Below are positions 26,180-41,482 of a DNA stretch of 63,038 nt, piece after piece. Numbering within the stretch: position 1 is the first letter of the stretch; the number at the start of each line of letters is the position of its first letter. Made by a program: the position numbers and the translations under genes. The notes under the pieces were generated by a model that worked only from the letters and a program-made list of their open reading frames with translations, had not been told where the DNA came from and ran no database searches. Source of the DNA: Bdellovibrionota bacterium (GTDB taxonomy: Bacteria > Bdellovibrionota > UBA2428); assembly GCA_964201665.1 (NCBI GenBank), contig CAXNEW010000005.1, positions 1 through 63,038 of the forward strand. Direction: 5' to 3'.

Positions 26180-27213
26180 GGCGTTTCATTATCTATTTCA
26201 AAAAATTCTAAGGGCGCGCGATGCCAGTAGCCGGCGGGGCGCCAGCGTTTGAAGCTTTCGACTTTTTTCTTTGGATAGTACCCGATGGAGTGCACTCCTA
26301 GGGCATGGGCCAAATGAAGTGGGCCGGTGCTTGACGACACAACTCCTCGGGCTTTGGACAGATAGCCCACGAGAGTTTTTAAATCTTCAAAACCCTCTAT
26401 AATTGAAACTCGTTTTTCTTTTGAAATGCGGTCTTGGCGCAAAAATTCGAGTCTTTGCTTGGCGTCCCAACCTTTGACTAAAAATTCAACGTGAGTTTCC
26501 GAGTCGAGTTTTAAAATTTCGTGGGCCTTTTTTACATAAAACTCTATAGGAAGATTTTTTGCCGAACCCCGATTGGAAACAACCAAAACCCAGTAGTGGG
26601 GGTGAGGCCTGGGAAATTGCCAATTTTCGGGAATCTGAAGACTCGGTAGTCCGGTAAAAGTAGGAACAGGAATTTTTTTGGACTGCAAGAAAGCACGAAC
26701 AAGATCGAGATTGTATTCCATTTCAGATTTTTCAACGCGACTTCTATTTTGAGAAATGGACTCACTAAAAATCCAAAGACTTGAAATCTTTGTCCGCGGA
26801 CCAAGAGTAAATTCAGCAGAAATGTTTTTAAAAAATTTTCCGAGTCTTTTATCGACTACAAGCGATATAGCTGCCGACGCTGGCTTCAGGGCTTCTTTCG
26901 ACTCCGATTCAATAACGCCTTTTGAGTCAATGGTGTAAAAATGAGTGCAAAGTTTATTGAACTGGGCCCATTCGGCTAAATCTCTATTTGAACGATCAAC
27001 CAGTAAATTTATCTCAGATTCAGGCCCCAGCCCAGCTTTTAGAAAACCCAGAGCCGGCAAGGATAAAACTAAATCCCCTATGGCATCGGTTCGGGTAACC
27101 CATATACTGTCCCGATTTTTGAGAGGGAGATTAATCACAAACCCCAAAGATAGCTTGAGCTGATTCCAAATGATAGTGTTTCTTTTAGTATGAACACTCC
27201 GATTCGTAGGCAT
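26176..27213 (-). CDS. glycosyltransferase family 9 (LPS heptosyltransferase-like)
   Basis: VTRTDAIGDLVLSLPAL and SSSTGPLHLAHALGV are GT9 signatures. The start may instead be GTG 27138, because 27213 overlaps the divergent ABC gene. Confidence 0.8.
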   Translation of the reverse strand: MPTNRSVHTKRNTIIWNQLKLSLGFVINLPLKNRDSIWVTRTDAIGDLVLSLPALGFLKAGLGPESEINLLVDRSNRDLAEWAQFNKLCTHFYTIDSKGVIESESKEALKPASAAISLVVDKRLGKFFKNISAEFTLGPRTKISSLWIFSESISQNRSRVEKSEMEYNLDLVRAFLQSKKIPVPTFTGLPSLQIPENWQFPRPHPHYWVLVVSNRGSAKNLPIEFYVKKAHEILKLDSETHVEFLVKGWDAKQRLEFLRQDRISKEKRVSIIEGFEDLKTLVGYLSKARGVVSSSTGPLHLAHALGVHSIGYYPKKKVESFKRWRPAGYWHRAPLEFFEIDNETP

Positions 27214-28992
27214 TTATTTCCTCTGCTTTGGGAACAAAAAAAGTGGATTTTTGTTTCATTCTTTTTCGCCTTGGGTGTCGCTCTGGTTCAGATTCAAACG
27301 TCGGTTCTTGTAAAAAACCTCATGGATCGGGCCATTATTCCCAAAAACTTTAATTTAACACTCGATCTTTGCGGACTTTTAATCCTTTGGGTTTTCTTAG
27401 AGGGTCTTTTTGATTTCTTTCACAAATATTCGCTGCGTCTGGGCGCCGAGAGACTTGTTAGAGATCTGCGCAATCGGGTCTTTAATAAATACCTGATTTT
27501 TTCGCGGGCTATTTCGTACAAATACACGTCAGGCAAAGCTGTAACTAATATCAGTTTAGACATCGCCTCTGTCTCGCTCGCCCTGGTGTACAGCACGAAT
27601 CTTTTGCGTGAACCTCTGATACTTTTGGGCCTGTTTGGTTATTTGTTTTATCTCAACGTTCAGCTCACTTTAGTTTGCCTTTTGGCTGTGCCACTCTTAC
27701 TTTCGGTTGGATTTTTTCTCGGAAAAAGCGCCCGCCGAAACCAGGCCAAAATCCAAACCCGCCAAGAAGCTGTAATGGCACTAACTATCGAGTCCGTTCA
27801 GGGACTTGAAACGGCACAAACACTGGGCCGCCCCCTTTTGCTGGCTCAGCGTTTTTCAGAAAAAACTCAGGAAGTTTATCAGGTTTTTTTACGACTTATT
27901 CGGTCGGAAGAATTAAACAGTCCGCTTTCAAAATGGGTCGCTAGTTTTTTTGGTGCCGGACTCATTGGTTACGCCGGATTTTTGGTTTCCAAAGACATGA
28001 TGACTGCCGGTGAACTTACCGCTTTTATTGTTACGGCCGGAAGAATTCAGCAGCCCCTACGATTGCTCAATGATGTGAACGTAAAATTTCAACAGGCCTC
28101 GGCGGCTGCTGAACGACTCAGATCTACCCTTGATGAAAATTTGGATGCCGTGAGCGCGGCTCAGCAAGAAGAATTTTCAAAAAACGCCAAACCCGCTCCG
28201 TCGCCGGCGCCCGAAAAATCTGTCGAAATTGAATTTAAAAATGTATCTTTTCAGTATCCTCGTTTTGCCGCTGATTCCAATCCGCGTGCGCCCCACTGGG
28301 CCTTAAACAATGTTTCCCTACAAATTCGCCCGGGACAGAAATGGGCCCTTGTGGGACGAAGTGGAGCTGGGAAAAGTACCTTTGTGCGACTTGTTTTAAG
28401 GTTGATGGATCCCACTGCGGGATCTCTCCTTTTAAACAAAAAAGATATTCGTCATATGCGTTTGGGTGAATATCGAAATTTTTTCACTTATGTGCCGCAA
28501 GAAAGTTTTTTGCTGAGCCAAAATGTGAGAGCTAATTTTGAATTTGTTAAAGAGCCTCAAAACGACCAAGAAATTTGGGATGCGCTTGAAAAAGCCCACG
28601 CCGCAAATTTTGTAAAGGCCTTTCCTAAGGGTCTTGATCAGCCCTTAGGCGAAAATGCGAACCTGCTTTCGGGGGGCGAAAAACAACGGCTATCTCTTGC
28701 ACGTGCTTTTTTCAAAAATTCTCCGGTGATTGTGTTGGACGAAGCCACTTCAAATCTTGATGCCCATAGCGAAGCCCTTATAAAACAAAGTTTAGACTCA
28801 TTGCTAAAAAACAGGACGGCTTTGATTATCGCTCACAAACTCACAACAGTTAAACAGGTTGATCGGGTCGCCGTTTTTGACGGCGGTCAAATTGTTGAAA
28901 CCGGTTCACCCGAGGAACTCCTAAAAAATCCGGCGGGATCCTTTTCTCAACTCTGGATGGCTCAGGGGAATGGGCATCAGCTACCCGTTTAA
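27190..28992 (+). CDS. ABC exporter, fused permease/ATPase (MsbA-like lipid A flippase)
   Basis: Six-TM ABC_membrane domain followed by Walker A GRSGAGKST, signature LSGGEKQR and Walker B VIVLDEATS. Lies in lipid A/LPS context. Confidence 0.8.
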   Translation: MNTPIRRHLFPLLWEQKKWIFVSFFFALGVALVQIQTSVLVKNLMDRAIIPKNFNLTLDLCGLLILWVFLEGLFDFFHKYSLRLGAERLVRDLRNRVFNKYLIFSRAISYKYTSGKAVTNISLDIASVSLALVYSTNLLREPLILLGLFGYLFYLNVQLTLVCLLAVPLLLSVGFFLGKSARRNQAKIQTRQEAVMALTIESVQGLETAQTLGRPLLLAQRFSEKTQEVYQVFLRLIRSEELNSPLSKWVASFFGAGLIGYAGFLVSKDMMTAGELTAFIVTAGRIQQPLRLLNDVNVKFQQASAAAERLRSTLDENLDAVSAAQQEEFSKNAKPAPSPAPEKSVEIEFKNVSFQYPRFAADSNPRAPHWALNNVSLQIRPGQKWALVGRSGAGKSTFVRLVLRLMDPTAGSLLLNKKDIRHMRLGEYRNFFTYVPQESFLLSQNVRANFEFVKEPQNDQEIWDALEKAHAANFVKAFPKGLDQPLGENANLLSGGEKQRLSLARAFFKNSPVIVLDEATSNLDAHSEALIKQSLDSLLKNRTALIIAHKLTTVKQVDRVAVFDGGQIVETGSPEELLKNPAGSFSQLWMAQGNGHQLPV

Positions 28993-28995
28993 AAA

Positions 28996-29823
28996 ATGCC
29001 AACACGAAGTTTAGAAACTCCAACCGATGCCAAACGAATTTTAGTTGTTTCGGATTTGCACATCACAAAGTCGGACAGTCCACTTTATCGAAATTTTATT
29101 GATTTCTTAAAGAAAGAGTTTCAAAACCACAAAAAGGCAGGCGCTGATCATGAGCTTTGGTTACTTGGGGATATCTTTGACTTTATGGTGGGGCCCTTCG
29201 ACTTTTGGCTCAAAATTTATTCAGAATTTTTTATTGAGCTCACTCGCCTTTTAAATTCAGGAGTGCGCATTCTTTGGATACAAGGCAATCACGATTTTTT
29301 TATTGAGGGACTTGAAAACAAATTGCCAAAGGGAATTTTTATTCGCGATGATTTTATGAATATTGAGATTGTCGGTTTTGGTAGGTGCTTTTTGGCTCAT
29401 GGCGATTTAGTGGATTTAAAGGATCGCAAATACCAACGGTGGCGGGCTATAACTCGAAAACCTTTGTTGCGAGCGGCACTGAGCTGTCTGCCCCAATGGC
29501 TCGTTTTGAAATATTTTTTGCCTTTTGGGCAAAACTTAAGCCAAAAAAGTCGCAAAAAAAGCCAAAATTGGGAGTCCAACTCTCAGTTTATTGCTGGCAA
29601 CAAAGAACTCTTTAGGGAATTTAGTCGTGAAAAGTGGAGCGCTGGCTTTAGAGGAGTTTTTCTGGGGCACAACCACATTTCGGACCAATACACAGAGAGA
29701 AACCATTTTCTACTAAATTGCGGTAGCTCTTTTGAGTTTCGGGATGGCAGGTTTAGTTTTTTTGATTGGAACCTTGAAACCGGAGAACTACCGCGTCGCG
29801 TTATCTGGCGCCCTTCCCCTTAA
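28996..29823 (+). CDS. lpxH: UDP-2,3-diacylglucosamine diphosphatase (LpxH-like metallophosphoesterase)
   Basis: Calcineurin-like motifs VVSDLH, LLGDIFDF, GNHDF and HGD, in LpxH-like order and spacing. Confidence 0.75.
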   Translation: MPTRSLETPTDAKRILVVSDLHITKSDSPLYRNFIDFLKKEFQNHKKAGADHELWLLGDIFDFMVGPFDFWLKIYSEFFIELTRLLNSGVRILWIQGNHDFFIEGLENKLPKGIFIRDDFMNIEIVGFGRCFLAHGDLVDLKDRKYQRWRAITRKPLLRAALSCLPQWLVLKYFLPFGQNLSQKSRKKSQNWESNSQFIAGNKELFREFSREKWSAGFRGVFLGHNHISDQYTERNHFLLNCGSSFEFRDGRFSFFDWNLETGELPRRVIWRPSP

Positions 29824-29868
29824 TATTGTCCTTCCCAAATTTTGGAAACTACTGAAAAATAAAGGGAT

Positions 29869-30621
29869 ATGAGCTCAGCAACACAGACCTCACCCGGACA
29901 TCATGGATATCGCCAAAAACCTAAATGGATTTACTTTGCCTCTATTGTGCTGATGCTCACTCCGTTTGGAAATTTGCTGTGGTCTTTGGCCTCGCTCAAT
30001 GTTCAAGATTGGTACATGCCTTCGGCTTGGGCCCATTGGGTTAAGTTTGTTTCACCAACTACATGGTTTCTATTGGCAATGATTTTTTCTAGTGGAATTT
30101 TGCTCCTTGTTGTACGCAAATGGACTTGGACCCTGAGCCTTGCTTGTTTGGGTGTCATCGTTGTTTATGACATCGTAATGATTGCAAGCAATCAGTTTGA
30201 ACTGATGGGCAATTTTCCTCTCATACTCATGCTTCTGGCCACGCTTTCGTTTGGACTTGGTCTTTACCTAACTGAATTTCGTAAACCCTACCTTTACCCT
30301 CGCATGCGATGGTGGGAAACCAGTCCCCGTTTTCGCGTTGATCTGCCCATTGGAATATCTTCGGCTGAACACTCGGGCAATCTTGTAGATATTTCACGTT
30401 CTGGTCTTTTGGTTGAATGGGATGATCCCAAAAAAACCCCCAGCCTCGAGGGTGAACTTGTTGCTACCCTACCTACTCAAGTAAAAATTCCGGTAGTTGT
30501 CGCAAGGCAAACCGCCCGAGGCTACGGACTTCAATATGGCGAGCTTTCGACAGATCACAAAAAAGACATCCGATTCTTTCTTGATACCTTGTCAGACGAC
30601 CCCACAAAGCTTTTGCGCTAA
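29869..30621 (+). CDS. membrane protein with C-terminal PilZ-like domain
   Basis: Four hydrophobic segments, then RMRWWETSPRFRV ... DISRSG (DxSxxG). Confidence 0.65.
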   Translation: MSSATQTSPGHHGYRQKPKWIYFASIVLMLTPFGNLLWSLASLNVQDWYMPSAWAHWVKFVSPTTWFLLAMIFSSGILLLVVRKWTWTLSLACLGVIVVYDIVMIASNQFELMGNFPLILMLLATLSFGLGLYLTEFRKPYLYPRMRWWETSPRFRVDLPIGISSAEHSGNLVDISRSGLLVEWDDPKKTPSLEGELVATLPTQVKIPVVVARQTARGYGLQYGELSTDHKKDIRFFLDTLSDDPTKLLR

Positions 30622-30683: not shown

Positions 30684-30712
30684 TTGACACTAGACTCTAA
30701 ACGCTGTACGCT
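30684..30712 (+). promoter_or_regulatory. predicted sigma70 promoter upstream of the 30856 gene
   Basis: TTGACA (30684-30689), a 17-nt spacer and TACGCT (30707-30712). This would give a ~135-nt leader. Confidence 0.35.
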
Positions 30713-30855
30713 CTCGCCCCTAAATGGTTGGACTCAAGCTTTTTAATTACACACCCAAATCAGATCCGGCGAACAAGTTCGAACCTGCCAGATTCATCTG
30801 CAAAAAACATTAGGAAATTAAATTTTAAAAATTTTTAAAATCAAAGGAAAACAAA

Positions 30856-32433
30856 GTGCCAAATATTTTTAAAGCTCGAAAATTCATTACTCTCAAATTC
30901 CTACTTTTGTTTTCGTTTGGAGCCTCCGCAGGAGAGCCACTTTTGGGTCCCCAAACACTCAGCTTGGATTCGTCGTGCGCAAACCTTTTAACGAGAACTC
31001 TACAGGCTACCCAAATAGAATTTGCCCGCAACTTTCTTAGGTATCCACCCGATGATATCCAAACAGGACTTTTTGCTGCCTTGATGGCCTACTTTCCGAG
31101 GTCGACAGTGCTTTTTTCAGAGCCTCTCAGTGGTTCAGATACTGTCAACAAAAACTCCATTTCGTGGTTTTTAAGGCGAGAGGGACACCGCGAGGCCGAC
31201 CGAACTTTCACTAGTATTTTACTTCTCCAGAAAATTCTACGGGGTATGAATCCCCAGGAATTCAAAACCCCAATTGCCCCACTCAATCCGACTGAAGCCG
31301 AAATATTAAAAATTCGGCAACTCGTTTTTGAGTTTCTCACGGGTGATTCACAAATTATTTTTGATGGGAATGAATTTGAAAAAGTGAAACTCGAAAGGCT
31401 TCATGCCCTAATTGTTCGTCTCATTTTTCATGACCAAGGAAAATTCGAAACTGTACTTAGAGAATTGAGGATTCGAATTTCGGAAGGCGGAGAGGACCCG
31501 AATCTAGTTCTGAGCGCAGACCACGACCTAGCCACCAAACTAATGATGGACCGATTTAGAATGGAAATGGGAGATTTAAATACAGTTTTTCCAGAACCCG
31601 ATGCCTGGATGAAAAAAAGTCAGATCGGTGCACTCAACCCTGGAAGAGTTTTTCAGTTCGAGGCCCCTGCCGCCCACCTAGCGCCCTTGCAGAATCTCGA
31701 TCATGAGACTTTTCTGTTTTGGTTGGTCAAAGAAATTTTTGATGTTGGAGGAGTCAAGGGCTCAGAACATCCCAGCGGATCTTTTTGGATTAAGCCTGTA
31801 ATTAACAACTATTTTCAGCTTTTAGAAGCCTATCGTTTGGGTCAAATTGGAAAATCATCAACTGAAATAACTAAATACTATCGAAGTTTGCTGCAAAAGG
31901 CAGGGCAGGAACTTGGCATTGTCGGCCAAACAAGTGAGGATTTAGCAATTATAAAACTTGCTCGTCTCTTTAGGCTTAATCAATTTCCCGAAATCGGACG
32001 TAATCGACGAATTCAAATTTTAAAAAATTTGTTTTTAAATCTTGATTCCAAGGACCGCGCTAAATTGATCGAAGAGCTCAATTTGAATGGAGTCGATGAC
32101 GGGTGGGCTTTTACTTTTGGATACCTTCCCCAGGTATCAGAGAATATTCAAACGAGTCTAGGCGTCTGGGTAAAAACTGCTGAAGAATCAGCCACTGACG
32201 TTTCGATTGCCAATGCTCTCGATGTTTCGATAAAAATACTTCTAAAAATAGTAAATCTCGCCCGTCCGAATGTTAGCAACGATTTGTTACAAAAAAATGG
32301 CGAATACACCTTGGAGATGCCCGGTATCGCCGATTTTATTAAAAAGAATGGGACCGCAGGCCTTTTAGAAACGCCATTGAATTTTAAACCAGCTGGACTT
32401 AATAGCGCAACAATTACACTAGGTACGAAATAA
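30856..32433 (+). CDS. secreted protein of unknown function (P1), with His/Asp motif set; paralog of the N-terminal half of P2
   Basis: GTG start. Signal peptide FLLLFSFGASAGEP. Motifs IFHDQGK, SADHD and EIFDVGGVKGSEH. It aligns by eye with P2 at several blocks (see findings). Confidence 0.7.
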   Translation: MPNIFKARKFITLKFLLLFSFGASAGEPLLGPQTLSLDSSCANLLTRTLQATQIEFARNFLRYPPDDIQTGLFAALMAYFPRSTVLFSEPLSGSDTVNKNSISWFLRREGHREADRTFTSILLLQKILRGMNPQEFKTPIAPLNPTEAEILKIRQLVFEFLTGDSQIIFDGNEFEKVKLERLHALIVRLIFHDQGKFETVLRELRIRISEGGEDPNLVLSADHDLATKLMMDRFRMEMGDLNTVFPEPDAWMKKSQIGALNPGRVFQFEAPAAHLAPLQNLDHETFLFWLVKEIFDVGGVKGSEHPSGSFWIKPVINNYFQLLEAYRLGQIGKSSTEITKYYRSLLQKAGQELGIVGQTSEDLAIIKLARLFRLNQFPEIGRNRRIQILKNLFLNLDSKDRAKLIEELNLNGVDDGWAFTFGYLPQVSENIQTSLGVWVKTAEESATDVSIANALDVSIKILLKIVNLARPNVSNDLLQKNGEYTLEMPGIADFIKKNGTAGLLETPLNFKPAGLNSATITLGTK

Positions 32434-34784
32434 TGTTTCCAATAAATTTTAAAAATCTAACTTTAATTTTGTCAGTTATCTTTTGCAGTGGGACCCGCGC
32501 GAGCACACCAGAATGTTTTTGGGATTTGAAAATTGCAATTGGAGCCTCAATGAATGAGCTTCTGGCTGATTTCGGTAGCGGAACAGTTAGTGATTCAGAA
32601 ATGATTCGAAGACTGGTTATATTGTACCCCGATCTTCTGAAATTAACCGGTAGTGTGAATGCAACACCCGAGACAGCAGGCCTGGCTACAATAAATTCTG
32701 CCCAGTCACCCTCGAAACAACTTTTCGGGACTGTCCATACTGAATTCGATCGGACGATGGTTGGAATTCTCGCAATGAAGTGGACACTCGAAGGCAACTA
32801 CAATCAGATTTCGAAAATTCAGAAACCTGAAATTCGGCTAACTCAAAAAAGCTTCTCAGCCATGCGAGAATTGGCTCAAAAGAATTTGAGTGGCCCCGGA
32901 GATCTGAATGCCATGATCACCTACATGGTTATCAATGACTTAGGTAAAGTGAAATCCGTTGTCGCTGATTTGAAACAAAAATTTAACATTGAAGATCCAG
33001 ATCATGATGTCATTTTATGGAAAGCCTTGGTCAATGACCCAAGTATTTCGACGGCTTTTTTAAAGTTACCTGCCGATTCGCAGAAAAAAATTCTTGCTGG
33101 GTTGGAATCCCGTTTTAGCCTGCCGCAGTTTATTCAAGGGGAAAATGTTGCTGGAAGTCTGCCTCCCCTGGCCAAATTGAATGAGACCGATTTTTACTTT
33201 CACCTACTACATGCAGTTTTTGATCTAGCCGGAGCCGCTGGACACGTAAACCCTGACGGGTCTGTAGTGATGACCGAAGTTACCTATGCCGGAGTAGAAT
33301 CGGCCTTGGAAAAACTAAATTTACTAAGACAAGGGGTTGCGCCGGCAGAAGTTTATACCTCGTTCATGAAAGCCAGGGCTCAAAAATTAGAGATTGATAC
33401 CACGGCAAATGATTGGCTCATTTCTACCCGATTAAGTCTTTTGTTTAGGGCCACGGGTCCAACCGAAGTTAAGTTAGTCAAAGAAGTTTTTGCATCGTTG
33501 CCTGTGAATGCTCGAGCCATTATCGAGAAAGAGCTTTCTGCCTATGGAATTGACGATGGATTTTCTGTGCTTGTTTATTATGCTCCGGCACTGATCGCCA
33601 ATCTTCGTGGTGCTTTCAAACAAGCGAATATTGCTAACTCCGACAAGGAAGCCCTTGAACTCGGCCTCATTACACTTGCAAGAATTTTTCAAGAATCCCG
33701 CGTCTACTTGAAAAAGCGCTCGGGCAGTGGAGTGTTTACGGTTAATATTGAGTCGATAGCTGCGGCGGCTGGGAAGGATTTTTCACAACTTCGCACTAAG
33801 AATATTAAACTCAAGGCCGTTGGCCTTGGGTCTTCTGCCGAGTTAGTCGAAAAGACCGCCATTGATGCCGCGATTTTTCCAAAATTGGCTGATTTAAGAA
33901 ATTTGCCTGGTAAACGGATTGCAGTTGTTGGGATTGGCGGTGGTTCGGATGGGATTCAGGCCGCAATGCTTGGAAAACTTTTTGAGGCGCAAGGAAAAGA
34001 CGTCGCTTGTGTGGTTTCAGTTCGGACCTCGACCACAGGATCACAGGGGGGAAAAACTGCCATTGGATCTGCACGTACAGTCCAAAATCATGGCGGATTT
34101 GTGAATGGCGACACGGGCGTTGTAAGAATTAAATCGGACTCCACAGGTGAGGGCCGTTTTGTTGAAAACATTCCCGCTGAAGAAAAGAAAGTATTTTTAG
34201 TATTAGACCCCGACGAAACTAGCGACCCAATTTTGCGCCGCCAGACTATTATGAGCCGAATTCAAAGTGCCTTGGCTGAATCGGGTGGAGTGGACGCTAT
34301 TTATGCAGTTGATACGGGCGGGGATGCCCTTTACTCAGCTAGCACGGGTTTGGATGGAGCAAAGGCTACGCCTGATCAAGATCTCAGAGTTCTAGCCGCA
34401 CTCCACGGCCTAAGCTCCAAATACCAAGTGATGTCTGTTGAAATTGCGGCTGGTGTCGACTCACCCAAAAATGCTGAGACAGTTTTAACGGCGGCTAAGG
34501 CCCAATATTATGAGCCCACCACCACCGAATCTGCAGGAATTTTAGACCAATACATCGCCTGGCGAATGGATGGCACAGATGAAGAACGCTATGGCAAAAC
34601 CCCACTCGCGTGGCAGGCCGCTCTCCGCGGACAATTTGGGATGCAAGTTTTGCCACTTCCCACCCGGATAGTTATCGATCCCAAGAATCCATGGATTACG
34701 ATCTTTAGGATTGATCCGTCGATGAGAGGGATTTTCTTTATGAATATCGAAGATCACCTTAAAGCCATTGGTTTTCAGCCCTAA
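32433..34784 (+). CDS. secreted two-domain protein of unknown function (P2): P1-like N-terminal domain plus DUF1152-like C-terminal domain
   Basis: Its ATG overlaps the P1 stop (TAATG). Signal peptide LTLILSVIFCSGTRA. The N-terminal domain has INDLGK, DPDHD and AVFDLAGAAGH. The C-terminal ~305 aa has VVGIGGGSDG and AVDTGGDALY. Confidence 0.7.
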   Translation: MFPINFKNLTLILSVIFCSGTRASTPECFWDLKIAIGASMNELLADFGSGTVSDSEMIRRLVILYPDLLKLTGSVNATPETAGLATINSAQSPSKQLFGTVHTEFDRTMVGILAMKWTLEGNYNQISKIQKPEIRLTQKSFSAMRELAQKNLSGPGDLNAMITYMVINDLGKVKSVVADLKQKFNIEDPDHDVILWKALVNDPSISTAFLKLPADSQKKILAGLESRFSLPQFIQGENVAGSLPPLAKLNETDFYFHLLHAVFDLAGAAGHVNPDGSVVMTEVTYAGVESALEKLNLLRQGVAPAEVYTSFMKARAQKLEIDTTANDWLISTRLSLLFRATGPTEVKLVKEVFASLPVNARAIIEKELSAYGIDDGFSVLVYYAPALIANLRGAFKQANIANSDKEALELGLITLARIFQESRVYLKKRSGSGVFTVNIESIAAAAGKDFSQLRTKNIKLKAVGLGSSAELVEKTAIDAAIFPKLADLRNLPGKRIAVVGIGGGSDGIQAAMLGKLFEAQGKDVACVVSVRTSTTGSQGGKTAIGSARTVQNHGGFVNGDTGVVRIKSDSTGEGRFVENIPAEEKKVFLVLDPDETSDPILRRQTIMSRIQSALAESGGVDAIYAVDTGGDALYSASTGLDGAKATPDQDLRVLAALHGLSSKYQVMSVEIAAGVDSPKNAETVLTAAKAQYYEPTTTESAGILDQYIAWRMDGTDEERYGKTPLAWQAALRGQFGMQVLPLPTRIVIDPKNPWITIFRIDPSMRGIFFMNIEDHLKAIGFQP

Positions 34785-34847
34785 GACTGGCCGTTTTTTT
34801 GGTCTAAACCGTTGAAATAAGTAGGCATTTTTGCCAAGGTTTACTTA

Positions 34848-34876
34848 TTGACACACTGCGTTACTTAAGTTAGAGT
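34848..34876 (+). promoter_or_regulatory. predicted sigma70 promoter upstream of the 34891 gene
   Basis: TTGACA (34848-34853), a 17-nt spacer and TAGAGT (34871-34876). The ATG at 34891 would be within ~10 nt of the predicted start site, with no SD. Confidence 0.4.
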
Positions 34877-34890
34877 GCCGGGTTCATAAA

Positions 34891-37320
34891 ATGAAAATCT
34901 TGAAGCTCGGCACTTTTTTTTTCTGTTTAATATTTTTCGGTAACTCGAATTTATTTGCGGCTTACCCGAATCGTCGAATCATTATTACTGACGTGATGGA
35001 TGATGATATCCGTGCGATTTTTCATCTACTTTCAGATTTTGAAAAGCGAAAAACTATTGAGGCCTTTGTTGTCACTACAGGAAATGTCTATTTAAAGGCG
35101 GCAATTTTGCGCGAAATAATTGCAACAACCGGTTACTCGGTTCCGGTTTTTGAAGGAACCCCTACCAATTTAAGGGATAACCCCGTTACTTTTTTTGCTG
35201 GAAATTTTGAACTCGAGGGTAAGCATGTTTTGGATCCCCAACTCCTCAAAGATTTAAAAAAACTTCGATGGAATAAGGGGACCGCCGCTGAAAAAATTAA
35301 GGAAATTATTGCTAGAGTTCACAAATCCAAAGAAAAACTCGATGTGATTCTTCTCACGGCCCCAATTGATTTGGTCGAGGCACTCAAAATCACCGACCCC
35401 AATCTTTCAAAAGAAACCTTTGGAGATTTATTTGCGATGGGACTTTACCGAAGAAACCCCAACGGCCCCTGGGGAATGCCCTTTAACTTTCAGGCCGGAT
35501 CTGAATCTGTGCAGGCGCTGTTTCAAAGCGTGGATGCCGGTTTCTTTGAAAGAGCCTTTCATGTTCCAACGGATACTGTTCAAGAGGGGGCTGGACTCCC
35601 TGGTGGTTATTTTCCTGAATCCATAATTGGGAGTGAATTGAAGGCGAGACTGGCGAAGGTGTTAGAAGGCGACCAACAACTCAGCAGTCATTTTAAAGCT
35701 GCCCAAGAATATGGACTCGCTTGGTGGTCCAGTGCCGGGCAACAATTTGGGTTGGGTTTAACAAACAATAGTCGATGGGTAGCTGGAACATTAAAGAATC
35801 CGGCCGAAGCAACTGGTTTTTATGTGGCTGACCACCTTCCAGTTGTTCTTTCGAATTTAACTGACATTGAATTGCAGAAACTTTCATTCAAGGCGGGGAC
35901 TCAAAGGCCCCTAAAAAATTCTGATGGCACCTGGGCCTTCCAATCTGTCGAACCTGACGCAATGTCAGGTGGTTTTGTCGATTTGGTTTCACGAGATGGA
36001 CTCGTTAAGGACCTTGAATTTATCGACGGTTTGGGAATTTTAAGAATACACTTAGAACAACTAGAAAAACTGGCAGAGGCCCGGGCTAAAAACCCGGCCA
36101 ATTTTTTTTCCGCCTTTGTTGCGACCCCAAATTTTAAGTTTTCGCTGAAAAATGAAGTTGAGCGAAAGTCCTCTGCTCGCTCAAACCCTTTGGCAAACCC
36201 TTTAAAACCACAAAAAGAGGGCCCGCTACTTTTGGTTTTCAAAAATTCTCCTGATGATTGGCTGGCATTGATTCATTTGGTCGCCGAACCAAATTCAAGA
36301 AAAGCCTTACAAGCCGGAGGAATTATTGTAGAGGGATTTGATACCCTTCTTCAGCAAAAATCAGTTTTAGAATTTCTGAAATCACTAGGAATTGAAAGTA
36401 TTCCTGTTGCCCAAGGTTTCGAATATTCCTTTGAGCAAATTAATAAATTTCCTAATTTTCAGGGAGAAATTGCACTCTCACAATTCAAACACTCCCACCG
36501 TGCGTTTCATAAATCTGACGAGGCCATTGACCCTAGCAAAATTTTAACGAGTCATTTATTGTTAGCAAAAATTTTCGCCGAGGCTCAAAAAACTAATAAA
36601 AAAATTGACACCGTTGTCCTTGGCGAGGGAATGGATGTGGTCAATTTTTTAAACAGTAATCAGGAGTTTGTTTCTTCTTTAGGAGAAGTCGCGATTATGG
36701 GCGGCGGGCGAAAGGGAAAACAAGTTGGGACTATAGATTTTACCCGCAACTGGCTTCTCAATCGGGGTGAAATTTTAAAATTCTGGCAAAAGGTAGCACC
36801 TTCAACTCAAGGAGTTTTTGTTTTTTCAACCAGCGAGTTCGGTGCCACACTCCTAGCGGAGAAAAATGGCGATTTAGGAAATGCCTCCGCGGCCATTAAA
36901 GGTTTAAAAGAAAACTCCGCAACTTTTCCAGCCCTAACTCAAGTCATTGATCACTGGGAAAATTGGTCTCGAGTCTTTGATTGGGTCATAAACGGTTCGA
37001 AAAAGGGCGAGGCTTTTCAACCTGAAAAGACATTCGATGTGGTTCGTGTTTCGTCGTTAGGAGTCCATATTGCCGACGCCTATATTTCTGGAGCTCTAAC
37101 TCACCGACGGCACGGTTGGGATTTTACTGAAGTGGACCCTTTAAAATTACTCAATGACTCGGCATTGACCCCTAAGGAGGGGTCCAGTTTTTACTGGATC
37201 ACAAATCAAACCCCCGGTGAAGTTGCAGAAGTTTCTGAGCGATTTGCCGACGCCCTAGGCCATTTTACTAAGTCCAAAAATTGCTACGAGAATTTAAAAA
37301 TCATTTTTTTAAGCAACTGA
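34891..37320 (+). CDS. secreted protein with two tandem nucleoside-hydrolase-like domains (P3)
   Basis: Signal peptide FFFCLIFFGNSNLFA. RRIIITDVMDDDIRAIFHLL...VVTTGNV...VPVFEG resembles the IU-nucleoside hydrolase / Sde182 NH-like N-terminal motif. A second, degenerate copy is LLLVFKNSPDDWLALIHL...IPVAQG. Confidence 0.7.
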   Translation: MKILKLGTFFFCLIFFGNSNLFAAYPNRRIIITDVMDDDIRAIFHLLSDFEKRKTIEAFVVTTGNVYLKAAILREIIATTGYSVPVFEGTPTNLRDNPVTFFAGNFELEGKHVLDPQLLKDLKKLRWNKGTAAEKIKEIIARVHKSKEKLDVILLTAPIDLVEALKITDPNLSKETFGDLFAMGLYRRNPNGPWGMPFNFQAGSESVQALFQSVDAGFFERAFHVPTDTVQEGAGLPGGYFPESIIGSELKARLAKVLEGDQQLSSHFKAAQEYGLAWWSSAGQQFGLGLTNNSRWVAGTLKNPAEATGFYVADHLPVVLSNLTDIELQKLSFKAGTQRPLKNSDGTWAFQSVEPDAMSGGFVDLVSRDGLVKDLEFIDGLGILRIHLEQLEKLAEARAKNPANFFSAFVATPNFKFSLKNEVERKSSARSNPLANPLKPQKEGPLLLVFKNSPDDWLALIHLVAEPNSRKALQAGGIIVEGFDTLLQQKSVLEFLKSLGIESIPVAQGFEYSFEQINKFPNFQGEIALSQFKHSHRAFHKSDEAIDPSKILTSHLLLAKIFAEAQKTNKKIDTVVLGEGMDVVNFLNSNQEFVSSLGEVAIMGGGRKGKQVGTIDFTRNWLLNRGEILKFWQKVAPSTQGVFVFSTSEFGATLLAEKNGDLGNASAAIKGLKENSATFPALTQVIDHWENWSRVFDWVINGSKKGEAFQPEKTFDVVRVSSLGVHIADAYISGALTHRRHGWDFTEVDPLKLLNDSALTPKEGSSFYWITNQTPGEVAEVSERFADALGHFTKSKNCYENLKIIFLSN

Positions 37321-37323
37321 TGT

Positions 37324-37359
37324 CAGTAAAAAGCGTAAGGTCCCTTACGCTTTTTACTG
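37324..37359. terminator. bidirectional intrinsic terminator hairpin between convergent genes
   Basis: CAGTAAAAAGCGTAAGG (37324-37340) pairs perfectly with CCTTACGCTTTTTACTG (37343-37359). A/T runs inside both arms give U-tracts on either strand. Confidence 0.75.
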
Positions 37360-37396
37360 AAGGCTAAGTCCTAAACTGGGAGAACTCGGGAACAAG

Positions 37397-38410
37397 TCAT
37401 TGATCACTCAATTTGGAATTTACAAGCCCGTAGATTCCGTACTGAATCAAATAGCTAAGAGTATATTCTGGAAATTCTTTCTCGAATATTTTCATGAGGG
37501 CCAAGTAGTGTTGGCCGGCCTGGTCGGTTTGAAGCTCTGATTTTCTGTTTCCCAGAGACTTAACATAGGCTGTTACCAACCCCTCTGCTTTTTTCAAATA
37601 CTGAATTTGTGATTTTACCGCGAGTTCGAGTTTCACAGCATGGCCTCTTCCACCATATACAGTCGGATTCTGAACTTTGAAGATTGATTGAATTTCTTTT
37701 AAGCCTGAAATCCAACCTTGGATTGTGGGATTGGGTTTTCCATCGACAATTCCCCCTTCAAGCCAAGCATGGGTTTGGTAATGAACCATATCCCCAACAA
37801 AAAGGGCATTTTGGGAAGGTATATATGCGATTGTCTGGGTACTACTCACACCGGGAGTAGTGAGAACTGAAAGATAAATTCTTTCGCCATTTCTAAGCCT
37901 AATCTCGGTCTTCTTTTCGAAAACCGTTTCGACACGCGGGAGCAAGGGGTAAGTTTCTTCACTAAACATCTTTGCAATATTCACAAAATAGTACTTCTTG
38001 TAGTCGTGAACCCCTTTCAGATTCTCTAAAGTTGCCTCGGATGCTGTGACTTTCGCCCCGAGTGCTTGAAATTCAGAGACACCATTGAATTTATCGGGGT
38101 TGGGGTGGGTGAGAATAACATGGGTAATTGGGCTCTGAGTTTGAGTCCTAATGAATTCTATTGATTCTTTTGCAAGCTCAGGGGTGAATTGTGTGTCAAA
38201 AACTACGACCTCCTCACCATTGTCGTAAAAGAAATTTTTAGTGTTGAACCCATTGGCTTCAGATTCAAAATGAAAAATCTTCTTGGTGGCGGATAAGCTC
38301 TCAATCCCTGGATCTTGAGTTATTTGTGCTCGAGCGCACCCGCCTGAGATGAGTGAAAAAAGGAAAGATTGAGCGGTTAGAAGTTTTGAAAAGTTCATTG
38401 TGGCCTCCAA
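37397..38410 (-). CDS. metallo-beta-lactamase-fold lipoprotein with a degenerate metal motif
   Basis: Lipobox-like LISGGCA. MBL-like layout, but motif 2 reads THPNPDK instead of HxHxDH. The start may be ATG 38398. Confidence 0.7.
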   Translation of the reverse strand: MEATMNFSKLLTAQSFLFSLISGGCARAQITQDPGIESLSATKKIFHFESEANGFNTKNFFYDNGEEVVVFDTQFTPELAKESIEFIRTQTQSPITHVILTHPNPDKFNGVSEFQALGAKVTASEATLENLKGVHDYKKYYFVNIAKMFSEETYPLLPRVETVFEKKTEIRLRNGERIYLSVLTTPGVSSTQTIAYIPSQNALFVGDMVHYQTHAWLEGGIVDGKPNPTIQGWISGLKEIQSIFKVQNPTVYGGRGHAVKLELAVKSQIQYLKKAEGLVTAYVKSLGNRKSELQTDQAGQHYLALMKIFEKEFPEYTLSYLIQYGIYGLVNSKLSDQ

Positions 38411-38474
38411 AGTTTAAATGTTTTTGTTGTTTACTGAATACATTTAACTCTGGGCTCCGTCTTAAGGCTTCCAG

Positions 38475-38510
38475 TTTTCGGCCAAAAGTCCTGCCGGTTT
38501 TGGCCAAAAG
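38475..38510. promoter_or_regulatory. two tandem palindromic sites in a divergent promoter region (candidate operator)
   Basis: TTTTCGGCCAAAAG (38475-38488) and TTTTGGCCAAAAG (38498-38510), the second containing the perfect 12-bp palindrome TTTTGGCCAAAA. Their centres are about 22 bp apart. They lie between the MBL gene and the AraC gene. Confidence 0.4.
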
Positions 38511-38558
38511 ACAATATCGCGTCTTTATTTAGGACCTATTCGGATTTAGCTTAACGGT

Positions 38559-39362
38559 ATGGCCTCCAACAGAGATTCGGTAGTTACTCATCCCGGAGTT
38601 TCGGTGATTTACCAAAAAATTCGAGGCAGCGAGGTTGGGTTGCATTCCCATGAGGATCATGAATTTTTTTTTCCGATCCAGGGAGAAATTCAGGTTCTGG
38701 ATCATGAAAAAAAAATTATGAAAGCGGGGCCCGGAAAAATGGTTTATCTACCCCCGAACACTCAACATTCATTTCTTTCAGATGCAGTTTCTCAGGGAGA
38801 AAGAATCATTCTTTTAGTTAGCCAAATTTTATGGAAAAAGCACAGCGGAGTCATTTCTACACCCCGAGTGATGTCTGCGAGTCAACTCTGCAAGGAAATT
38901 GTATTCCAGTTACTCATTAATCCAAAAACTAAGGCCCTCTCGGCTCTCATTCAGACACTCATCGAAACCCTCTCAGAAATGATCGAGACCTCAAATGAAA
39001 ACTCAGAAAAGGAAATTTCTTTTTTTGTGTCGAAGACTAACGATCAAAGATTGAAAAAAGCGTTGTACTTAATTTCTGAAAATTTTACTGCCACTTTGTC
39101 GTCCGCTCATATTGCGAAGGCATCGGGTTTGAGCGTGCGAAATTTAAATCGACTTTTTTTGAATGAATTTGGGATGACTCCAAAACAAATTCAAACAGCA
39201 CTTCGTATTCAAGAAGCCAAAAAAGAACTTTCAGCCGGAAAAACGAATGTCACCGATACCGCTTTAAGCATTGGGTACAGCTCTGTTTCCCAATTCATAG
39301 CGATTTTCCGACAACACACGGGGCAGATTCCCTCGGCCTTTTTGCCTAAATCATCTCTTTAG
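38559..39362 (+). CDS. AraC-family transcriptional regulator (cupin sensor plus HTH_18)
   Basis: N-terminal cupin-like region (HSHEDHEFFFPIQGE). C-terminal AraC HTH (IAKASGLSVRNLNRLFLNEFGMTPKQ ... IGYSSVSQFIAIFRQHTG). Confidence 0.85.
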   Translation: MASNRDSVVTHPGVSVIYQKIRGSEVGLHSHEDHEFFFPIQGEIQVLDHEKKIMKAGPGKMVYLPPNTQHSFLSDAVSQGERIILLVSQILWKKHSGVISTPRVMSASQLCKEIVFQLLINPKTKALSALIQTLIETLSEMIETSNENSEKEISFFVSKTNDQRLKKALYLISENFTATLSSAHIAKASGLSVRNLNRLFLNEFGMTPKQIQTALRIQEAKKELSAGKTNVTDTALSIGYSSVSQFIAIFRQHTGQIPSAFLPKSSL

Positions 39363-39422
39363 CCAGCGGAACATCAATTCGAAATCAATTTTCGAGGTTT
39401 ACTGAAGGGGTTGTAGGTTCGT

Positions 39423-39962
39423 CTAATCACCTTGGGTTCGTCTATGCGGATGCAAGCGAATGTCGGTGAACTCCTTGGGTAAATCCTTTTCGTTTTGGGG
39501 GATTCCCCAAAGATTTTTAATACTTTGGGGGATCTTTATGAGACTGTAATTCTTGAGTTCCACACAGACTGTTCGGAGTTCGGACCAATACAAAGTGCCC
39601 GGCAGAGCTTCTAAGGGCTGACTTTGGTTTATTTTTAGAAATTCTTCTGTTGGCGGGACATCAACCACCGACTGATTGAATCGAATTGACGCCTGCTTGA
39701 GGGCACCGACTCGCGTGAGTACAAAAATTTCTTTGCCCAAAAAGGCCGGGCGTAAAAACTTTTGAAAAACATCAGAGATTAAAATCCCCTGCCCTTCCTT
39801 GTGAAATTCATGAAGGCTTACTCCCATATTCAAGAATAATTCTGACCTGGCTCTTTCTAAAAGTTTTAAATAAACCGGATGGTGCAAGACTCCGAAATAG
39901 TCGACGTCTTCAAACTGCACTCGAATCGGGTACACGAAAGTTTTTTCAAAAATAGTTTTCAT
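39423..39962 (-). CDS. acyl-CoA thioesterase, 4HBT/YbgC-like hotdog fold
   Basis: VQFEDVDYFGVLHHPVYLKLLERAR is the typical 4HBT N-terminal motif. Lies 14 nt downstream of spoVR. Confidence 0.7.
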   Translation of the reverse strand: MKTIFEKTFVYPIRVQFEDVDYFGVLHHPVYLKLLERARSELFLNMGVSLHEFHKEGQGILISDVFQKFLRPAFLGKEIFVLTRVGALKQASIRFNQSVVDVPPTEEFLKINQSQPLEALPGTLYWSELRTVCVELKNYSLIKIPQSIKNLWGIPQNEKDLPKEFTDIRLHPHRRTQGD

Positions 39963-39976
39963 TTACCTAACGCCCT

Positions 39977-41482
39977 TTATGCTGAAACTTCTTTTGAAGA
40001 AAACTGTGTCCCATCAAAACTCAGCAGCGTGGGCTTTGTTTCAAGCACCGTTTGTATGTGCACAGGCCGCCTCCAAAGAGCCTGAAGATTCCTTAGAGTC
40101 AGATCGGCGTAGTCCCCCCGAAGATCTTGGCCCTCATGGGAATGAATCAGCAGAAGCTCGCCACGATTAAGAAAGTTTGAGTCGACAACCTGAATAATAG
40201 GCTGACCAAAATTCACAAGTTTTTTTAAGAGCTGCGATTTAATGGCCTGAAACTCGCGGGTTGTGATTTCGTTTTGGCCGGTGCGTTCGTTAAAATCAAA
40301 GGCAAAGAATCTTTGTTTGCGGCAAAAATCTTCTGTAAAAAACTCGTCTATAAAAGTGGCGTCGTTATAAAGCGACCGCACTTCAAATATTTTTTTTCGC
40401 CCAAGCCCCAATTTTTTATCCCACTGACTTTTTGCAAGATAGTCGTCGCAATTGTCCCAATCTTTTCCAAATTGGCCCTTATTCCATCGGTCTTCGATGT
40501 CATGAAAAAGTTCGTAGCCCACCTTATAGGGATTAAAGCCGCCCTTAGGTGTGGCTAGGGTTCCACTATGAACATCGGCAAAATCAACAATCTCAGAATC
40601 CGAAAGCAAATGCTCGCTCATAAGCTTGGCGTGCCAGTAACTGGCCCAACCTTCGTTCATAATTTTCGTTTGGCCTTGGGGAGTAAAATAAGCAGCCTCG
40701 TCGCGAACAATTGTGAGGCAATCTCTCTGCCATGGCTCGAGCGGAGCGTTTTCAATTAGAAAATTAAGAACATCGCGCTCGGGTTTTTCGGGAAATTTTT
40801 TTGGCGTTGCTTGTAGATTTTCGAAATCTTTTCTCTGTTGGTTAATCACCTTGTCGGGATTAACGAAAGATTCCATATAAGATTTAGTTGGTATTTTTGT
40901 AGCCTTAAAAACCGTTGATTCAGGTGGCTGTTTTTCAGAATCAGGAATTCCCGGAATTCTTTGAACCCCGCCCAAATTGTTGAGGTCGATTAAATTATCA
41001 ATCGAAAGACACCGGTCCAAAAATTCTTCAACAACCTCGACACCCTTTTGATCTTGATATTCACGAATACGAACTGCGTGATTGGCCATTTGATCAAGCA
41101 TGCGGCGATTGGTGTGCGAAAAGGTGCGATTATGTTTGAAAAAATCGCTGTGGCCATAAACATGGGCCATGACGAGTTTTTGTTCCATTAATGAATTTGA
41201 ACTGAGTAAATAGGCGTAGCAGGGGTCGGTGTTAATCACCATTTCATAAATTTTTGACAGACCGTGTGTATAACTTTTTGAGAGCCGGTCAAAATCCATC
41301 CCAAAGCGCCAATGTGGATAACGAGTGGGAAAGCCTCCAAGAGAGGCCAGCTCGTTGACCTCGTTGTAATCAACGACTTCAAAAATCACTTCAAAAAAGT
41401 CTAAACCCGCATCTATTGCTTTTTGGCGAGCAATTTTTTGCCATTGTTGCAATTCTTCGGGCATCCGCCTTCGGCCAACCAT
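39977..41482 (-). CDS. SpoVR/YcgB family protein
   Basis: GLDFFEVIFEVVDYNEVNELASLGGFPTRYPHWRFGMDF and later blocks are characteristic SpoVR. AAGGAGG sits 5 nt upstream of ATG 41482. Confidence 0.9.
   Translation of the reverse strand: MVGRRRMPEELQQWQKIARQKAIDAGLDFFEVIFEVVDYNEVNELASLGGFPTRYPHWRFGMDFDRLSKSYTHGLSKIYEMVINTDPCYAYLLSSNSLMEQKLVMAHVYGHSDFFKHNRTFSHTNRRMLDQMANHAVRIREYQDQKGVEVVEEFLDRCLSIDNLIDLNNLGGVQRIPGIPDSEKQPPESTVFKATKIPTKSYMESFVNPDKVINQQRKDFENLQATPKKFPEKPERDVLNFLIENAPLEPWQRDCLTIVRDEAAYFTPQGQTKIMNEGWASYWHAKLMSEHLLSDSEIVDFADVHSGTLATPKGGFNPYKVGYELFHDIEDRWNKGQFGKDWDNCDDYLAKSQWDKKLGLGRKKIFEVRSLYNDATFIDEFFTEDFCRKQRFFAFDFNERTGQNEITTREFQAIKSQLLKKLVNFGQPIIQVVDSNFLNRGELLLIHSHEGQDLRGDYADLTLRNLQALWRRPVHIQTVLETKPTLLSFDGTQFSSKEVSA

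Follow-up and report, generated by a model that had tools for sequence, protein, structure and literature searches.

Inosine-uridine nucleoside hydrolases (IU-NH; RihA/YeiK, PF01156) and the effectors XopQ and HopQ1 share the nucleoside-hydrolase (NH) fold, and in IU-NH the first Asp of the motif DxDxxxDD is both a Ca2+ ligand and the general base. The histidine-aspartate (HD) superfamily comprises HD-domain phosphohydrolases, phosphodiesterases (PDEs) and HD-type oxygenases (Cas3 HD, MIOX). The domains of unknown function DUF6829 (PF20717) and DUF1152 (PF06626) are Pfam families with neither a described function nor a solved structure. These are the closest known points of comparison for a block of three genes, P1, P2 and P3, on contig CAXNEW010000005.1 (assembly GCA_964201665.1) of a Bdellovibrionota bacterium of lineage UBA2428. 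The whole stretch analysed, 63,038 nucleotides (nt) long, is referred to here as the window. P1 and P2 belong to families that have been catalogued but not characterised. The block as a whole has not been described as a system, and it fits no defence-system model, RNA element or NCBIfam name.

Open reading frame (ORF) calls in the window place the three genes on the plus strand, with products of 525, 783 and 809 amino acids (aa), just as an earlier note on this DNA had read them:

P1, 30856..32433, plus strand: 525 aa; signal-peptide-like N-terminus at aa 1-25; DUF6829 (Pfam) at aa 96-431 (nt 31141-32148); lacks DUF1152.
P2, 32433..34784, plus strand: 783 aa; signal-peptide-like N-terminus at aa 1-23; DUF6829 at aa 85-438 (nt 32685-33746); DUF1152-like Rossmann-type domain at ~aa 485-783 (nt 33885-34781).
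P3, 34891..37320, plus strand: 809 aa; signal-peptide-like N-terminus at aa 1-23; two nucleoside-hydrolase-fold domains at ~aa 27-400 (nt 34969-36090) and ~aa 445-790 (nt 36223-37260).

P2 is a conserved two-domain unit of DUF6829 and DUF1152, and P1 is a diverged DUF6829 paralog that is translationally coupled to it. We propose, with a probability of roughly 0.4, that the block encodes exported enzymes which act on nucleotide-derived or ribosyl small molecules outside the cytoplasm of the producer.

P1 and P2

BLASTP aligns P1 and P2 at 25% identity over 327 aa (E 3e-20), a span which includes all four blocks in which the earlier note had aligned P1 with the N-terminal part of P2. Both proteins score above the DUF6829 gathering cutoff of 27 bits, P1 with 59.3 and P2 with 207.5 bits, and the stop codon of P1 overlaps the ATG of P2 in the sequence TAATG, which bears out the coupling noted before. 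The extra C-terminal domain of ~300 aa that had been remarked on in P2 is, by a near-threshold profile score and predicted structure, a DUF1152 domain. P2 itself scores 21.9 bits against PF06626 in full length and 24.8 bits when the domain is searched by itself, slightly under the cutoff of 27, while two of its homologs exceed the cutoff (L045 with 34 bits and L019 with 29.9 bits). The AlphaFold2 model of P2, built from a 33-sequence alignment with a predicted local distance difference test score (pLDDT) of 89 and a predicted template-modelling score of 0.88, has an N-terminal domain made of helices only and, at the C-terminus, an alpha/beta domain of Rossmann-like fold. Searched against BFVD with Foldseek, the model matched the Hyperionvirus DUF1152 protein A0A3G5AD54 (E 2.5e-4, probability 1.0, target template-modelling (TM) score 0.61, 309 columns). 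This giant-virus protein is the sole significant structural match to P2; Pandoravirus proteins with YspA/SLOG domains are among the weak structural matches to the DUF1152-like domain.

Further, Foldseek found no match to the P2 model in the PDB at E <0.1. The weak PDB matches included PDE2A, PDE4D, PDE1B and the HD-domain protein EF1143 for the N-terminal domain (PDE/HD at E 0.4-1.7) and generic Rossmann folds for the C-terminal domain. Searches of the PDB with phmmer and with profiles, for P2 and for the DUF6829 core, returned spurious weak matches only. A search of one paper library retrieved no paper naming DUF6829 or DUF1152, nor PF20717, PF06626 or IPR010581, and nothing naming either domain was found in the literature on TCAD9 and Rhodanese-phosphatase. 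NCBIfam gave no meaningful match for any of the three proteins. The view that P1 and P2 belong to no characterised family is hence still accurate, both now carrying Pfam names.

P1-type proteins form a small clade of 10 clusters. Relatives of 846-885 aa retain a C-terminal DUF1152 and are 51-53% identical to the window protein over all of P1, whereas the short members of 525-576 aa, P1 of the window included, lack it. P1 stops exactly where its 846-885-aa relatives run on into DUF1152, and the short form is also present in at least four other clusters.

The DUF6829 signature and a possible likeness to HD domains

A signature for DUF6829 was derived here from 233 domains and reads E-x2-R-T, (H/N)D-L-G-K, D-H-D, Q-x-E, H-x3-D, G-x2-G, R, Y-Y-x-P and N; some 20 of its polar or charged positions hardly vary from bacteria to eukaryotes. 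P2 carries the full signature with N at position 168, and P1 carries H at this dyad and departs from the signature at L170Q, H260K and Y382G. The earlier note was therefore right that P1 has HD where P2 has ND, but its reading of the two as an enzyme and a pseudoenzyme is not supported. The first residue of the HD-like dyad is N in 129 of the 233 domains and H in 50, so that ND is the family majority. The signature of P2 is complete, and it is P1 that lacks two conserved positions (H260K and Y382G). The enzyme/pseudoenzyme assignment was accordingly dropped.

DUF6829 resembles the HD superfamily in being all-alpha and in the order of its motifs, with (H/N)D-L-G-K at a helix end, then DHD, then H-x3-D. 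It differs in that P1 and P2 themselves have no significant sequence or structure match, that N replaces H in P2 and in most members of the family, and that, with ~400 aa, it exceeds the usual size of an HD domain; DUF6829 is at best a candidate member. Local Cas3_HD matches on the (H/N)DLGK segment were obtained in three homologs, eukaryotic only, with scores of 22.5, 17.6 and 24.8 bits (cutoff 23.1). A loosely HD-like, metal-dependent hydrolase, as suggested before, thus finds weak backing in these near-threshold scores and in the weak Foldseek matches, but not in profile searches of the PDB or in hhalign. From profile and model comparisons together, an HD-like DUF6829 is plausible but unproven.

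P3, a duplicated nucleoside-hydrolase fold

The profile PF01156 (IU_nuc_hydro) matches P3 with 52.8 bits against a cutoff of 34.2, with matches in both halves; the second half alone scores 26.8 bits, under the cutoff. In a Foldseek search of the PDB, the top matches to the P3 model were all nucleoside hydrolases (probability 1.0, target TM score up to 0.72), with XopQ among them. Like IU-NH, P3 keeps the DD pair and an FN..(D/S)PE-like segment, and like XopQ it would be an exported or secreted NH-fold protein. Unlike IU-NH, XopQ and HopQ1, it combines two NH-like domains in one 809-aa chain with a signal peptide. The Asp cluster is also altered relative to IU-NH. Where the family has DxDxxxDD, domain 1 reads (I/V)TDxxDDD (I-T-D-V-M-D-D-D in the window), with I or V in place of the first Asp, and domain 2 reads FKNSPDD, with both leading Asp residues lost. 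The first Asp of domain 1 is replaced in every homolog that covers the segment (five of the six).

The earlier note had called P3 a tandem nucleoside-hydrolase-like protein. This stands for the fold, which is found in both halves, but not for the chemistry, since the catalytic first Asp is missing from each; P3 is therefore not to be called a canonical nucleoside hydrolase. Judged from profile matches and the predicted model, it is an atypical, duplicated variant of the nucleoside-hydrolase fold with predicted export. Such proteins are rare: a search of 5.8 billion proteins turned up 6 clusters of them.

Spread, architectures and partners of DUF6829

A profile search of 1.84 billion representatives recovered DUF6829 in 1683 clusters (50% identity) at E<=0.001. 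Among GTDB species genomes the family occurs in Bdellovibrionota, Patescibacteria, Gracilibacteria, Omnitrophota, Rickettsiales and other Alphaproteobacteria, Gastranaerophilales, a Micrarchaeota metagenome-assembled genome, some Clostridia and a few others. The distribution is patchy and enriched in prey- or host-dependent lineages, without being confined to them. Fusion to DUF1152 is the commonest architecture of the family and is seen in ~20 of the 33 close P2 clusters; elsewhere the two domains are encoded by adjacent, often overlapping genes (L016, L031, L035, L038 and L049). DUF6829 and DUF1152 are obligate partners in the P2 subfamily.

Other partners are enzymes of a recurrent kind. 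Three Bdellovibrionales contigs (L012 and those of P0004 and P0006) have, directly after a P2-like gene, a gene for a ~955-aa, signal-peptide-bearing Zeta_toxin-DUF6829 protein. This protein (L012, 3735-6611) has an N-terminal Zeta_toxin kinase, an unassigned middle of ~300 aa and a degenerate DUF6829 (NIGK and NH for NDLGK and DHD); in L012 a phage-integrase gene comes next. Zeta-toxin and AvrRxo1-type kinases and other nucleotide-targeting conflict domains are fused to DUF6829 or lie beside it in relatives, but none of these domains occurs in the window, to which the link is by association. DUF6829 is also fused to an N-terminal PTP phosphatase in P0054 and to an N-terminal Nuc_deoxyri_tr2 domain in P0144. 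In Omnitrophota, one ORF of over 2280 aa (L023, 6927-13766) carries DUF6829, DUF1152, a weak Prs-like match, HAD, MTS methyltransferase, CN_hydrolase and NAD_synthase domains; it lacks a stop codon, is truncated by the end of the contig and has an N-terminal region in common with L020. In L051 (4090-7909), a short P1-type gene (533 aa) has a gene for a signal-peptide-bearing NUDIX protein directly upstream. Downstream of it lies a gene for a protein of 313 aa that bears a signal peptide. Its DxNGT (HAD-like) start resembles the N-termini of the giant protist proteins described below, and, when tested for DUF1152, the protein proved not to contain it. The same contig also carries rve integrase, relaxase and 2H-SAK genes. 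Collectively, the Zeta_toxin, PTP, Nuc_deoxyri_tr2, NUDIX, HAD and NAD synthase partners independently support the nucleotide or nucleoside theme of the earlier note, and the context of DUF6829 supports a theme of nucleotides or ribosyl compounds.

In eukaryotes, the domain occurs in protist proteins of mostly 2000-4500 aa from Perkinsus olseni and EukProt transcriptomes (P0042, P0048, P0052, P0069, P0074 and P0041/P0185). In these proteins a TCAD9 kinase-like domain, NACHT and ankyrin repeats are joined by DUF6829 three times in tandem; one copy has an intact HDLGK and two are degenerate. One Perkinsus gene model adds MIOX and SET domains and may represent merged neighbouring genes. Indeed, paired or tandem DUF6829 copies, one intact and the others diverged, recur across the family, and the principle of a P1-P2 pairing is well supported.

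Predicted export

Each of the N-termini of P1, P2 and P3 runs from a basic n-region through a hydrophobic core (mean Kyte-Doolittle 2.3-2.9 over 9 aa) to a small-x-small site, with putative cleavage at ASA|G (P1), TRA|S (P2) and LFA|A (P3). Hydrophobicity and the -3/-1 rule agree with the signal peptides pointed out before, and all three proteins look Sec-exported on this prediction. Export signals are also present on the closest P2 homologs (P0002-P0004 and P0006) and on several family representatives of 810-990 aa. P1, P2 and their closest relatives thereby add a predicted Sec-type leader to the two Pfam families, whereas the more distant DUF6829 homologs, those outside Bdellovibrionota included, showed no export signal with the same heuristic.

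Proposed role

If the block encodes exported enzymes for nucleotide-derived or ribosyl compounds, the site of action in a Bdellovibrionota-type organism would be its own periplasm or the prey. DUF6829 would be the catalytic or ligand-binding core, as the invariant polar constellation E..R-T, (H/N)D-L-G-K, D-H-D, Q-x-E, H-x3-D, R, Y-Y-x-P, N resembles a metal-binding, possibly HD-like, site. DUF1152 would be its Rossmann-like partner, with glycine-rich loops (GIGGGSD, DTGGD, TPDQD) that would suit phosphate or ribose binding, and the DUF6829 pocket and these loops may act together. P1 and P2 would probably form a hetero-oligomer, which we propose because paired or tandem copies, one intact and others diverged, recur in the family. 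P2, probably complexed with P1, could then be a metal-dependent enzyme or a ligand-binding unit for a phosphorylated ribosyl or nucleotide-type compound, and P3 may bind or cleave an N-ribosidic substrate or product of the same route. Zeta kinases and NUDIX enzymes need ATP, UDP-GlcNAc, NAD or ADP-ribose, which are found in the cytoplasm, so that the contents of the prey are the most plausible target of the exported Bdellovibrionota versions, whether these serve in scavenging or as toxins.

Several findings weigh against this proposal. For DUF6829 and DUF1152 alike, no substrate, metal or activity is on record. The HD link consists of near-threshold local matches in homologs and of Foldseek matches at E>0.1; profile searches of PDB sequences gave no such link for DUF6829, and hhalign of the DUF6829 core against MIOX-containing and SpoT HD proteins gave no signal, this being a weak test with single sequences. 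P3 may lack hydrolase activity, given that the first motif Asp is missing from the sequence of both domains, and its model, built from a 6-sequence alignment, is of low confidence (pLDDT 62). The sole basis for export is a home-made heuristic. Further, most P2 homologs stand alone with no conserved neighbours outside Bdellovibrionota, three P3 homologs (P0035, P0039 and P0037) have no DUF6829 neighbour, and the one apparent fusion of P3-like and P2-like sequence, in L010, may have arisen by rearrangement or as an artefact of assembly.

Cohesion of the block and alternative explanations

How far the three genes belong together can be judged from other contigs. In that of the closest relative, P2-P3 adjacency is kept, with 66% identity for P2 and 42% for P3. 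Upstream of the P2 of this relative (P0002) lies an 822-aa gene that has no Pfam match on record and is not among the P1 matches at E<=1e-20. A conserved P1-P2-P3 triad is therefore not shown, and the full triad is seen in this window only. No P3-like gene lies near the Bdellovibrionota loci L018, L019 and L046.

Contig L010 (1-3498) contains one open frame with a P3-like C-terminal fragment of ~130 aa, DUF6829, DUF1152 and an extra C-terminal domain of ~240 aa, in which LOG/SLOG-like glycine motifs can be picked out by eye (VYGGDS, AFGGGQISLEE) and which has no Pfam match. Nucleotides 1-158 of L010 are a 94% inverted copy of nucleotides 646-803, the start of the P2-like gene. A 'Rosetta-stone' fusion of P3 and P2 was downgraded on account of this 158-nt inverted repeat and of the short P3-like part; the fusion is weak evidence because the inverted copy lies at the contig end. 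The three-gene 'system' of the earlier note is consequently only partly supported as a conserved multi-gene system: P2 and P3 are adjacent in one other contig and in a rearranged fragment, but P2 homologs are mostly solitary and three P3 homologs lack a DUF6829 neighbour. The P2-P3 link is moderately supported.

The likeliest alternative is that P3 is unrelated in function, an independent exported nucleoside-hydrolase-like gene which adjoins a P1-P2 operon by chance. A gap of 106 nt and a consensus promoter 5' of P3 would fit this explanation, as would the three P3 homologs without a DUF6829 neighbour and the many P2 homologs, including those of L018, L019 and L046, without a P3-like gene nearby. 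Against it stand an adjacency kept in another contig at 66% and 42% identity, a P3-like segment that abuts a P2-like gene in L010, and the other DUF6829 proteins that are tied to other N-glycoside or nucleotide enzymes, and we regard a functionally unrelated P3 as somewhat unlikely.

A second alternative is that the proteins are prey-directed toxins or effectors which poison one of the prey's essential pools (nucleotides, NAD or UDP-sugars), and not catabolic or salvage enzymes. Zeta and AvrRxo1-type kinases require ATP and cytoplasmic substrates, and signal-peptide-bearing Zeta_toxin-DUF6829 fusions adjoin P2-like genes. A polymorphic-toxin-type PTP is fused to DUF6829, the NH-fold type III effector XopQ is among the structural matches to P3, a nearby integrase or relaxase makes some contexts look mobile-element-like, and eukaryotic homologs are found in NACHT-ankyrin-TCAD9 proteins. 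On the other hand, the window has no evident immunity gene, none of P1, P2 and P3 matched a PADLOC model, many homologs lack an export signal and lie among housekeeping genes, and the GC content is uniform over the whole window with no mobile-element genes at the locus. A toxin function is unlikely on this balance.

Finally, that DUF6829 is a non-catalytic ligand-binding or scaffold domain, with P1 and P2 as binding proteins or sensors, is the least probable of the three: the protist triplet does follow NACHT and ankyrin repeats, the usual sensor place in NLR-type proteins, with most copies degenerate, the dyad H is N in most members including P2, and no known enzyme fold is matched significantly, but some 20 near-invariant polar or charged positions from bacteria to eukaryotes are more typical of an active site, and the domain is consistently partnered with enzymes and not with transporters or regulators.

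Regulatory signals and neighbouring genes

The signals around the genes were read from the sequence as follows:

30684..30712, plus strand: candidate P1-P2 promoter; TTGACA, 17 nt, TACGCT; good -35, poor -10.
34848..34876, plus strand: promoter-like site 5' of P3; TTGACA, 17 nt, TAGAGT; 10 of 12 positions agree; consensus match only.
37323..37360, no strand: bidirectional intrinsic-terminator hairpin; 17-bp stem, -24.3 kcal/mol, z -7.2; A run 5', U run 3'.

The candidate P1-P2 promoter scored under the threshold of the consensus promoter scan. P1 starts with GTG, with AAAGGA 8 nt 5' of the start, and its leader of ~170 nt has no Rfam family and no stable fold, and hence no riboswitch clue. An own promoter had been predicted for P3; the sequence TTGACA-17-TAGAGT is there, but promoter-like sites in the region number 7 versus 9.3 in shuffled sequence and are not enriched, so the P3 site counts as a consensus match only. 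The strong bidirectional terminator said to end the block is borne out by the 17-bp hairpin with its flanking A and U runs, which sits between the convergent genes P3 (plus strand) and 37397-38410 (minus strand).

From their translations, the flanking genes (27190-30621 and 37397-41482) look ordinary chromosomal. The upstream side carries genes for an MsbA-like ABC exporter, an LpxH-like metallophosphoesterase and a membrane protein whose C-terminus is PilZ-like. On the downstream side are the convergent gene for an exported protein of metallo-beta-lactamase fold and genes for a regulator of the AraC type, a thioesterase-like protein and one resembling SpoVR.

Implications

The hosts of DUF6829 are largely predators, episymbionts and intracellular bacteria, with a few archaea and protists. 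Taken together with its partners (nucleotide kinases, phosphatases, N-glycosidases, NUDIX and NAD synthase), they point to nucleotide-type metabolite chemistry at the interface between organisms. A wider and more tentative possibility, against which the odds lean, is that DUF6829 with DUF1152 is an unrecognised two-domain enzyme for an NAD-, nucleotide- or NDP-sugar-derived molecule, used by predatory and host-dependent prokaryotes. In Bdellovibrionota it would be a Sec-exported, prey-directed module with NH-like, Zeta-kinase or NUDIX partners, and in protists an effector or sensor part of NACHT-ankyrin immune-type proteins. If so, the P1-P2-P3 block would be one natural example of a new chemistry of conflict or scavenging between organisms. 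The window offers this in a compact experimental form, two paralogs and an atypical nucleoside-hydrolase-fold protein, all apparently exported. Should the inferred role prove wrong, the locus still offers a clean starting point from which two DUFs could be given a function.

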